Shown here piece after piece: positions 4,026 through 4,993 of a stretch of 64,000 bases of DNA. The notes under the pieces are model-generated. The model made no database searches and was not told where the DNA came from. It saw nothing but the letters and a program-made list of their open reading frames with translations. Source of the stretch: Candidatus Daviesbacteria bacterium (GTDB taxonomy: Bacteria > Patescibacteriota > Microgenomatia > Daviesbacterales > UBA10151). The translations under genes were made by a program, and so were the position numbers. How positions within the stretch are numbered: the stretch's first letter is position 1; each line of letters starts with the position of its first letter. The DNA lies in NCBI GenBank assembly GCA_016186955.1, contig JACPKP010000003.1:194290-258289 (forward strand), read 5' to 3'.

Positions 4026-4993
4026 ATATTTTTCATTGGAAAATCAGGGTAACCGTTTAGGAAATCTTTTAAAGGTATAGGTTTTTTCCCCTCCATTTGT
4101 ACTAACACCGTTTTGTCATCCTCGACTTTGATCGAGGATCCATTTTTTTTCTTTGTTTTTTGGATTCCCGCCTTCGCGGGAATGACAGAAGTATAGGGCA
4201 AAAATTTGACAATCTTAGCTTGCCCGCTGGAGCCTTGGCGAAAGCGGGTCCAGGCATTAGGCCAGGGGAAATATGCCCGGACCATCCTGTCTAAAACAAT
4301 AGGGTTTGGCGGATTGTTAATATCGAAATACCCGTCTTCTTTTTTAATCCGGGTACAAAAAGTTGCTATAGTATGATTTTGTCCTCGGGATTTAATTTTA
4401 CCATTTACAAATTCAGGCATTGTTTTTATCAAAAGTTCAGATCCAACTTTGGCCATATTATTGCTCAAAGATTCAAAAGTTGCATCATTGTTGACCGCTA
4501 TTTTTTGTATTGCTAAAACCGGTCCATGGTCCATTTTTTCATCCATCAGCATAATTGTTACCCCAGTTTGGCTTTCCCCGTTTAAAATGGCAGCTTGGAT
4601 AGGTGAGGCTCCCCTGTATTTTGGCAGCAATGAACCATGCACATTTATTGCCCCGAATTTTGGAATGTCCAGCAAAGCCTGGGGAATAATTTTGCCGTAA
4701 GATGCCACTATGAATAAGTCGGTAGTGAGTAGTTGATGGTTAGTGGTGATGAATTCAGCGTCAAGTTTTTCCGGTTTTAATACAAGGATTCCATGAGCTG
4801 CAGCAACTTTAGATACTGCTGAAGGAGTAATAAACTGTTTTCTTCCGGTAGATTTATCAGGGGATGTGACAACTGCTTTGATATTAAACTTTATATCAGT
4901 TCCACCCCCGGGGTGGGATTTGATAAGTTGTTCTAAGATAAAAGCGCTAAATTGTGGAGTGCCAAAATATACAATAGAGGATTTATGATTCAT
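4022..4993 (-). CDS. fmt: methionyl-tRNA formyltransferase (carries in-frame repeat-element insertion near C-terminus)
   Basis: INVHGSLLPKYRGASPIQAAILNGE formyltransferase core; downstream of def on same strand; C-terminal SVIPAKAGIQKTKKK segment is encoded by a dispersed repeat. Confidence 0.9.
   Translation of the reverse strand: MNHKSSIVYFGTPQFSAFILEQLIKSHPGGGTDIKFNIKAVVTSPDKSTGRKQFITPSAVSKVAAAHGILVLKPEKLDAEFITTNHQLLTTDLFIVASYGKIIPQALLDIPKFGAINVHGSLLPKYRGASPIQAAILNGESQTGVTIMLMDEKMDHGPVLAIQKIAVNNDATFESLSNNMAKVGSELLIKTMPEFVNGKIKSRGQNHTIATFCTRIKKEDGYFDINNPPNPIVLDRMVRAYFPWPNAWTRFRQGSSGQAKIVKFLPYTSVIPAKAGIQKTKKKNGSSIKVEDDKTVLVQMEGKKPIPLKDFLNGYPDFPMKNI
4114..4187. repeat. dual-hairpin MITE/REP-like dispersed repeat, type 1 copy (inside fmt, in frame)
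   Basis: tgtcatcctcgactttgatcgaggatc ... ggattcccgccttcgcgggaatgaca; two palindromic hairpins; termini tgtcat/atgaca inverted. Confidence 0.8.

Follow-up and report, generated by a model that had tools for sequence, protein, structure and literature searches.

An inverted pair of CGTC-type REP hairpins in frame within the fmt gene of a Candidatus Daviesbacteria bacterium

We analysed a 64,000-nt stretch of a Candidatus Daviesbacteria genome (positions 194,290–258,289 of contig JACPKP010000003.1, assembly GCA_016186955.1; the whole stretch is called the window hereafter, and positions refer to it). In this window fmt, the gene for methionyl-tRNA formyltransferase (4022–4993, minus strand, 323 amino acids), contains a 74-nt element at 4114–4187 that consists of two inverted hairpins of the REP (repetitive extragenic palindromic) type. 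The explanation that we favour, and consider very probable, is that this dimer is a hairpin miniature lacking the nuclease gene of larger cassettes, which was inserted in fmt and kept as a tolerated in-frame loop.

The repeat and its host gene

The reading frame of fmt was intact in the open reading frame (ORF) list. It contained ...FLPYTSVIPAKAGIQKTKKKNGSSIKVEDDKTVLVQMEGKK... with neither a stop nor a frameshift, its translation reads …IVKFLPYTSVIPAKAGIQKTKKKNGSSIKVEDDKTVLVQMEGKKPIPLKDFLNGYPDFPMKNI, and the conserved C-terminus QMEGKKPIPLKDFLNGYPDFP stays in frame after the repeat. The first-pass annotation had reported a 74-bp copy of a repeat in the minus-strand fmt gene, with the frame running on into a plausible C-terminus; its coordinates and translation were exact, and re-translation into the conserved Fmt C-terminus gave no frameshift or stop. 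Pfam recognized Formyl_trans_N (1.2e-39) and Formyl_trans_C (1.8e-9) in the product, which is identical to a Candidatus Daviesbacteria Fmt protein in NCBI (P0001) and has the Fmt structures 4IQF, 3Q0I and 1FMT as its best PDB matches. The catalytic SLLP/HxSLLPxxRG region is present as NVHGSLLPKYRG, and the peptide deformylase gene def adjoins fmt. Because residues N117, H119 and D155 were invariant among 60 Fmt orthologues and the C-terminal 25 residues agree with the family consensus, fmt with its insert looks, from its sequence, like a functional gene.

On the plus strand, the insert reads TGTCATCCTCGACTTTGATCGAGGATCCA, followed by an 18-nt spacer (T8CT3GT5) and then TGGATTCCCGCCTTCGCGGGAATGACA, so that the whole is an inverted hairpin pair of the form TGTC…GACA. 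The left unit (hairpin 1; 4114–4142, plus strand) is a CGTC-2-like REP with a TGTC tag, an 8-bp stem (ATCCTCGA/TCGAGGAT), a 6-nt loop (CTTTGA) and a CCA tail; in the three other dimers of the window the loop is CTTGA (5 nt), the fmt copy having one extra T. The right unit (hairpin 2; 4161–4187, minus strand) reads TGTC-ATTCCCGC-GAAG-GCGGGAAT-CCA and is a CGTC-1 REP of the dRS3/NTS type. The T-rich spacer between them (4143–4160, plus strand) is A-rich on the fmt sense strand, where it encodes the lysine-rich KTKKKN, and it is longer than that of the other copies, the spacers of the four dimers ranging from 10 to 18 nt. Taken whole, the dimer (plus strand) covers codons S269 (third base only) through K294 (first base only) and encodes (S)VIPAKAGIQKTKKKNGSSIKVEDD(K).

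CGTC-tagged REPs form inverted dimers with variable spacers and accept TGTC as a variant of the tag; their stems of 8–9 bp begin with A-T, A-T, their loops are of 4 nt in family 1 and 5 nt in families 2–4, and their tails are mostly CCA (PMC3733652). Both units of the fmt insert begin with TGTC, both stems (ATTCCCGC/GCGGGAAT and ATCCTCGA/TCGAGGAT) are perfect over 8 bp, both tails are unpaired CCA (…GGAATCCA and …GGATCCA), and the inverted dimers are multi-copy in the window. The right unit is assigned to CGTC-1 because its loop, GAAG, has 4 nt. With every defining feature present, the fmt insert is, on sequence grounds, a member of the CGTC REP superfamily. CGTC-1 is the same as Neisseria dRS3 and Rickettsia conorii RPE-6 (Di Nocera, De Gregorio & Rocco 2013, PMC3733652), and RPE-6 and RPE-4 are the only RPEs (Rickettsia palindromic elements) in the superfamily (PMC3733652). 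The CGTC-1 type also corresponds to NTS, a 28-nt element with the consensus CGTCATTCCCGCGMAVGCGGGAATCYRG (Nat Commun 2025, PMC11893778): the right unit, TGTCATTCCCGCGAAGGCGGGAATCCAA, matched this consensus at 26 of 28 positions, the mismatches being the first and last bases only.

The exact 26-mer GGATTCCCGCNTTCGCGGGAATGACA was found in at least 120 genome stretches, and the hosts among the matches listed include Bacteroidota, Planctomycetota, Chloroflexota, Nitrospirota, Acidobacteriota, Omnitrophota, all classes of Proteobacteria, a Rickettsia endosymbiont and several groups of the Candidate Phyla Radiation (CPR). Hairpins of the left-unit type were likewise widespread: they occurred in at least 120 metagenome contigs, whose GC contents ranged from 0.31 to 0.66, and had many kinds of partner hairpin. 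About a tenth of the copies lay in long open frames (15/148 and 14/80). Across the loci collected with the 26-mer (L001–L120), the hairpin is common to genomes of more than 12 phyla, and in many loci (L027, L086, L104, L106, L109) inverted repeats also make up the flanks outside TGTC…GACA, which makes the hairpins modules of larger composite palindromes.

The closest known relatives of the fmt insert are therefore the CGTC-1 REPs, with which it shares the TGTC tag, the 8-bp stem starting with AT, the 4-nt loop, the CCA tail, the inverted dimers and the habit of a minority of copies to lie in frame in genes and encode the same peptides. The catalogued intragenic CGTC-1 peptides include VIPAKAGI, DSRLRGND, WIPAFTGMT, WIPAFAGMT and CHSRESGDP, from Rickettsia, Sphingomonas wittichii, Micavibrio and Chlorochromatium (Additional file 3, PMC3733652). 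The differences are that the present host belongs to the CPR (Patescibacteria), whereas the published survey spans five phyla without the CPR; that fmt and topA (topoisomerase) are not among the target genes in its Additional file 3; that the CGTC-1 unit is here joined to a CTTGA-loop unit as a heterodimer; and that a single protein turn has been struck repeatedly across the lineage. The finding extends this class of selfish hairpins (CGTC REP, dRS3, NTS, RPE-6) to the CPR, where even an essential translation enzyme of a tiny genome bears one in frame.

Other small repeats resemble the insert less closely. The Rickettsia palindromic elements (RPE-1 and relatives), reportedly described by Ogata and colleagues in 2000, are said to lie in frame in housekeeping genes. 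They share with the insert the translation of an in-frame palindrome as a surface loop, whereas RPE-1 is longer (about 100–150 bp), has another sequence and occurs in Rickettsia only. The GTAG REPs and REPINs, which are mobilized by RAYTs (Y1 transposases of the IS200/IS605 kind), are likewise short tagged hairpins with inverted dimers, occasional intragenic copies and a presumed single-stranded DNA mechanism, but their tag is GTAG instead of C/TGTC and the fmt insert does not fit the REPIN/RAYT definition. Miniature inverted-repeat transposable elements (Correia/NEMIS, ERIC, Nezha) are also small, non-coding, multi-copy and sometimes intragenic with inverted ends; the fmt element differs from them in having no target-site duplication, no relation to the terminal repeat of a DDE transposase, and ends that are each a hairpin. 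A full-text literature search for the peptide signatures gave no match, and one that combined the CPR with palindromic repeats, MITEs or REPs returned nothing relevant.

The first-pass annotation had assigned the fmt copy to the same repeat family as others in the window, and this held, since the 25-mer of the right hairpin occurred five times against 0.00 expected. Nine repeat units were counted, making up four full dimers (starting at 4114, 31381, 51014 and 61677) and one single unit, and all copies share one orientation on the plus strand. Perfect TGTC-tagged hairpins numbered 10 in the window against 1.7 expected from shuffles. The sister dimer at 31381–31444 (plus strand) lies inside topA (30097–32286, plus strand), in a part of the gene whose product is about 48 residues longer than TopA 6OZW there, and its right hairpin is identical to that of the fmt copy at 25 of 25 bases. 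Its sense reading is CHPRLDRGSFMKMDSRLRGND. The fmt copy is read antisense relative to it, as the earlier annotation had also noted. Two further sister dimers are intergenic (51014–51079 and 61677–61741, both plus strand), the latter occupying the whole yqeY–ybeY spacer, and the single CGTC-1 unit (59813–59839, minus strand) is directly upstream of the trigger-factor gene. A TGTCAT hairpin at 40244–40269 was considered as a further copy and set aside: it lies within a dCTP-deaminase-like gene, at a conserved motif, and has probably arisen by chance. Rfam at its gathering threshold gave no match in the whole window, and ARAGORN found no tRNA or tmRNA.

Hairpin units at 59813–59846 and 61677–61748 stop 7–12 nt ahead of the probable start codons of the trigger-factor gene and ybeY, where they may occlude or shape the ribosome-binding regions. 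The mechanical ORF starts at 59834 and 61736 are ATGs within GGGAATGACA.

It had also been proposed that an open frame in either orientation is a property of the element itself, one that tolerated insertion into genes would require. The six-frame check did not bear this out. Four of the six frames were open in the fmt dimer (two per strand), one in the topA dimer (the frame used) and two in each of the intergenic dimers, where chance gives about two (1.9–2.3 in shuffles of the same composition and 2.2–2.5 in random segments of the window). As single units, hairpin 2 was open in five frames out of six and hairpin 1 in four, with no excess over shuffled 27-mers; every unit has a TGA in one frame (…AA-TGA-CA), and hairpin 1 has another in its loop. 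Since open frames are no more frequent than chance, the element is not specially built for translation, and the open frames of the genic copies are best explained by survivorship, that is, by selection after insertion.

Within fmt, the sense-strand RNA of the insert folded into two hairpins (−30.9 kcal/mol, z = −5.2); for the DNA strand, z was −5.5. A ribosome on the fmt mRNA must unwind two 8-bp G+C-rich stems, and these stems, together with the A8 run in the A-rich spacer, could affect fmt expression. An AlphaFold2 model of the protein (60-sequence alignment) had a mean pLDDT (predicted local distance difference test) of 90.2, falling to about 50 at residues 271–290, which form a low-confidence loop with strands 259–265 and 297–300 on either side. 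The insert is thus predicted, on the model, to be a disordered loop of about 25–28 amino acids.

Recurrent inserts at one turn of Fmt

The 120 best Fmt homologues (45–57% identical, mostly Daviesbacteria-like) were aligned, and 117 of them could be scored at the turn that holds the insert. In 94 of the 117, the strands …IVKFLP and QMEGKK… are linked by only four residues (for example GGKI; LP-xxxx-Q), compared with 32 in the query. The closest orthologues lack the segment, in line with the insertion that the first-pass annotation had read from the DNA. In the two closest, the empty site reads CCAGGAGGCAAAATACAA and CCAGGAAACAAATTGCAA, in the context …CCAGGAGGCAAAATACAAATG…, and the empty-site DNA of the orthologues shows no obvious motif.

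The remaining 23 orthologues have inserts at the same turn, 7–39 residues beyond the usual four. TGTCAT…ATGACA elements lie at the same codon in five of them, from independent JGI, ENA, NCBI and Logan assemblies, and the peptides at the turn mark several hairpin families (VIPAKAGIQ…RGND, SHPELVSGS, CHSERSEES and RHPERSEGS). Fitch parsimony, applied to a neighbour-joining tree built from the core columns, required at least 19 changes of the filled state with an empty root, compared with an average of 21.2 for shuffled labels, and most filled sequences had an empty nearest neighbour. A single clade of filled orthologues was ruled out by this test, as they are scattered over the tree. With so many changes and with empty nearest neighbours, the inserts at the turn appear from their sequences to be mostly independent events. 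Inserts of six or more residues gathered at only four sites in Fmt, namely the N-terminus, after helix 1, between WT and IVKF, and the turn at 4114–4187. Four insert positions in 117 Fmt proteins, with one turn struck at least about 19 times independently, amount to a natural map of tolerance or targeting. The repeat family itself is well described; the novelty lies in the lineage and the gene that host it and in the recurrent hot spot, the last being the sole feature that goes beyond the literature we found.

Two more variable sites were seen in fmt. A second in-frame insert at 4212–4249 (codons 248–260) encodes RFRQGSSGQA where most orthologues have WNGK. Over 38 nt its DNA (TGGACCCGCTTTCGCCAAGGCTCCAGCGGGCAAGCTAA) is the same as in orthologue P0003, though the proteins are otherwise 57% identical and the flanking synonymous sites differ; related peptides (PSGSSGQA, SFGSAQDK and AKASGDK) are found there in about 30% of orthologues. 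The insert probably represents a further family of small repeats, present once in the window. The third site (4895–4925, codons 24–32) follows helix 1, where a palindrome (CCACCCCGGGGGTGG) encodes SHPGGGT in the query. Six to 24 extra residues are present there in 47 of the 120 orthologues, many with HPGGG.

The comparison with canonical Fmt needs care. At this turn the canonical proteins (4IQF, 3Q0I and 1FMT) are longer than Daviesbacteria Fmt by about 35 residues, and Pfam and phmmer (HMMER) pair the repeat-encoded peptide with that segment. The Daviesbacteria-type protein is shortened by these approximately 35 residues of the C-terminal β-barrel, between the IVKF and QxxGKK strands (window 4022–4350). 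This is why the domain models align repeat peptides to a real domain segment, and because the DNA is a repeat, the alignment is a coincidence of length and composition. For the same two reasons, the segment lost from Daviesbacteria Fmt and the repeat nature of the DNA here, the canonical segment does not refute an insertion. Repeat inserts of this kind inflate and distort protein alignments and domain calls in CPR genomes.

The same position raises the question of whether the insert has been put to use. It could have been recruited as a lysine-rich loop, for instance regaining a tRNA-binding surface where the barrel residues were lost, or the hairpins within the ORF could regulate the stability or translation of fmt mRNA. 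Such exaptation would fit the location of the insert exactly at the surplus of canonical Fmt, to which HMMER aligns it, the unusually long lysine-rich spacer of the fmt copy, the presence of some insert at the turn in 20% of orthologues, and the strong folding of the sense RNA. However, the inserts at the turn vary in family, length (7–39 extra residues) and charge, and show no conservation except for the repeat motifs; 80% of orthologues have none, and the segment is predicted to be disordered. We therefore regard exaptation as improbable, and the insertion, most likely, as baggage that is neutral or slightly harmful and not as an adaptation. Similarly, it is doubtful that hairpin repeats have a true integration hot spot at the turn, or that repeat peptides were repeatedly recruited there to rebuild a lost tRNA-binding surface; if either were true, selfish hairpin DNA would be a recurrent raw material for protein loops in the CPR.

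Candidate partner enzymes

Hairpins of the same type are known to accompany a nuclease. SsnA, a small GIY-YIG protein, cuts NTS only as single-stranded DNA, and hairpins of this kind typically enclose the ssn genes (GIY-YIG, cd10448 type) of bacteria at large in an architecture like that of insertion sequences, NTS-ssnA-NTS cassettes being widespread (PMC11893778). We found Ssn-like ORFs of 96–118 amino acids (Pfam GIY-YIG PF01541, E-values of 1e-14 to 1e-17) bracketed by TGTC hairpins in three loci, with hairpin 2 on both sides of the gene in two of them (L053 and L056) and the hairpin 1 type on both sides in the third (L186, GC 0.31). The CPR has Ssn homologues as well. In a Levybacteria locus (L248), the GIY-YIG gene lies between a unit with a 4-nt loop and one with a CTTGA loop, which is the heterodimer type of the window, and in an Uhrbacteria locus (L249) it is flanked by two TGTC units. 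These hairpins around ssn genes in CPR relatives support the proposal of an Ssn partner.

The likeness of the fmt insert to the NTS/SRM and SsnA system is thus that the right unit fits NTS and that hairpin-ssn-hairpin cassettes with the same ends exist, including in the CPR. It differs in that the window has no ssn, and in that the published study deals with single-stranded DNA cleavage and transformation in Neisseria rather than with coding inserts in frame (PMC11893778). Because the same hairpins flank ssn genes, the fmt dimer can be read as a nuclease-less miniature of an ssn cassette. Beside this, a hairpin dimer lies directly downstream of yqeY in the window (61215–61741), and a complete hairpin-ssn-hairpin cassette lies directly downstream of yqeY in the Levybacteria locus (L248, 96–915). 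The shared position may be a coincidence, or the dimer may be the remainder of a cassette whose nuclease gene was lost in situ.

The window has another candidate for moving the repeats, a RAYT-like gene of the IS200/Y1 transposase kind (53426–54097; 223 amino acids). Mobilization by its product instead of a GIY-YIG enzyme of the Ssn type would be in keeping with the scores of the protein (Pfam Y1_Tnp 36.5 bits, above the cut-off; NCBIfam REP_Tyr_transpos 47 bits), with its HUH (NHFHFL) and YIHLNPV…PWSS motifs, and with the movement of GTAG REPs by RAYTs (literature summarized in PMC3733652). But the gene is flanked by its own inverted repeats, copies of (G/T)TAGCTTCCCACCCTC at 53360–53374 and 54103–54117 with a third at 54987–54999, and these G/TTAGCTTCCCACCCTC repeats are not TGTC hairpins, which flank GIY-YIG genes instead. 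The segment 53360–54140 looks like a REPtron with GTAG-like repeats, separate from the TGTC hairpins. No RAYT flanked by CGTC units was reported in any species (PMC3733652), and a RAYT-like gene with different repeats of its own agrees with the view that CGTC REPs are not tied to RAYTs. Thus mobilization of the fmt insert by this transposase is unlikely.

We return to the insertion of a nuclease-less hairpin dimer. In this explanation, what entered the coding sequence of fmt would be a palindromic, non-autonomous repeat made of two inverted TGTC-tagged REPs (one CGTC-1/dRS3/NTS unit and one with a CTTGA-type loop). The dimer would be a miniature of the SRM-ssn-SRM cassette without the nuclease gene, presumably made or moved via single-stranded hairpin DNA; the published biochemistry and the architecture of the cassettes suggest, by analogy, spread by single-stranded DNA processing of the Ssn type. 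The copy would have survived by being in frame, free of stops and at a surface β-turn of an already reduced C-terminal domain, and it would be translated as a disordered, lysine-rich loop of about 25–28 residues that the enzyme tolerates.

Several points weigh against this explanation. No Ssn or GIY-YIG homologue was found in the 64-kb window by a motif regular expression, by tblastn with four Ssn-like proteins or by Pfam on about 62 ORFs, and the role of Ssn in the spread of repeats is itself a published hypothesis (PMC11893778). No target-site duplication flanks the four window dimers or the five orthologue inserts. The closest orthologue is only 57% identical, so that the empty site does not come from the same genome or a near-identical strain. 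From tag to tag the insert measures 74 nt, not a multiple of three, yet the net gain relative to the orthologues is about 28 codons. Recurrence at the Fmt turn could reflect targeting as well as tolerance, that is, selection on random insertions. Finally, translation in vivo, like tolerance by the enzyme, the mobilizing enzyme and the mechanism of insertion, is something that we infer.

A repeat-induced misjoin, or a pseudogene, would have to be considered as the genome is a metagenome-assembled one and the A8/T8 homopolymer of the insert is prone to length errors. However, the 74-nt repeat is below typical read length and has fmt on both flanks; the frame, the conserved 25-residue C-terminus and the catalytic residues are all kept, with def adjoining, and analogous inserts occur at the same codon in five independent assemblies. 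An artefact or a decayed gene is therefore very unlikely. Least credible is that the segment is a remnant of the ancestral C-terminal barrel lost by most Daviesbacteria, with no insertion at all: Formyl_trans_C covers residues 215–315 without a gap and phmmer aligns AKAGIQ…VEDD to AEAGTI…GNE of 4IQF, but the nearest orthologues lack the segment, the inferred root is empty, both hairpins recur intergenically and across phyla, and we rejected it on the identity of the DNA to other repeat copies, complete over 25 bases of the right hairpin in topA.

Further observations in the window

In a gap of about 370 nt without ORFs (52760–53130), 52924–52938 pairs with 53108–53122 in an acceptor-like manner, and a T-arm like that of a tRNA (GGTTCAAATCC) is present. 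The gap was recognized by neither ARAGORN nor Rfam, and Rfam in E-value mode on 52600–53450 returned only noise; it could represent a tmRNA or tRNA-like RNA of an unusual kind, or what remains of one.

Heptanucleotide runs of the (AGTCAAG)n type lie in frame in topA (30446–30478, 30762–30794 and 31538–31570) and in dnaX, for DNA polymerase III tau (62348–62380), where they encode low-complexity stretches of the SQESRVK type. The same type of peptide (RVKSQESRVK, RVKGQGLRVK) fills the Fmt site between WT and IVKF in other genomes, and runs of this kind abut hairpin dimers in two of the collected loci (L003 and L147).

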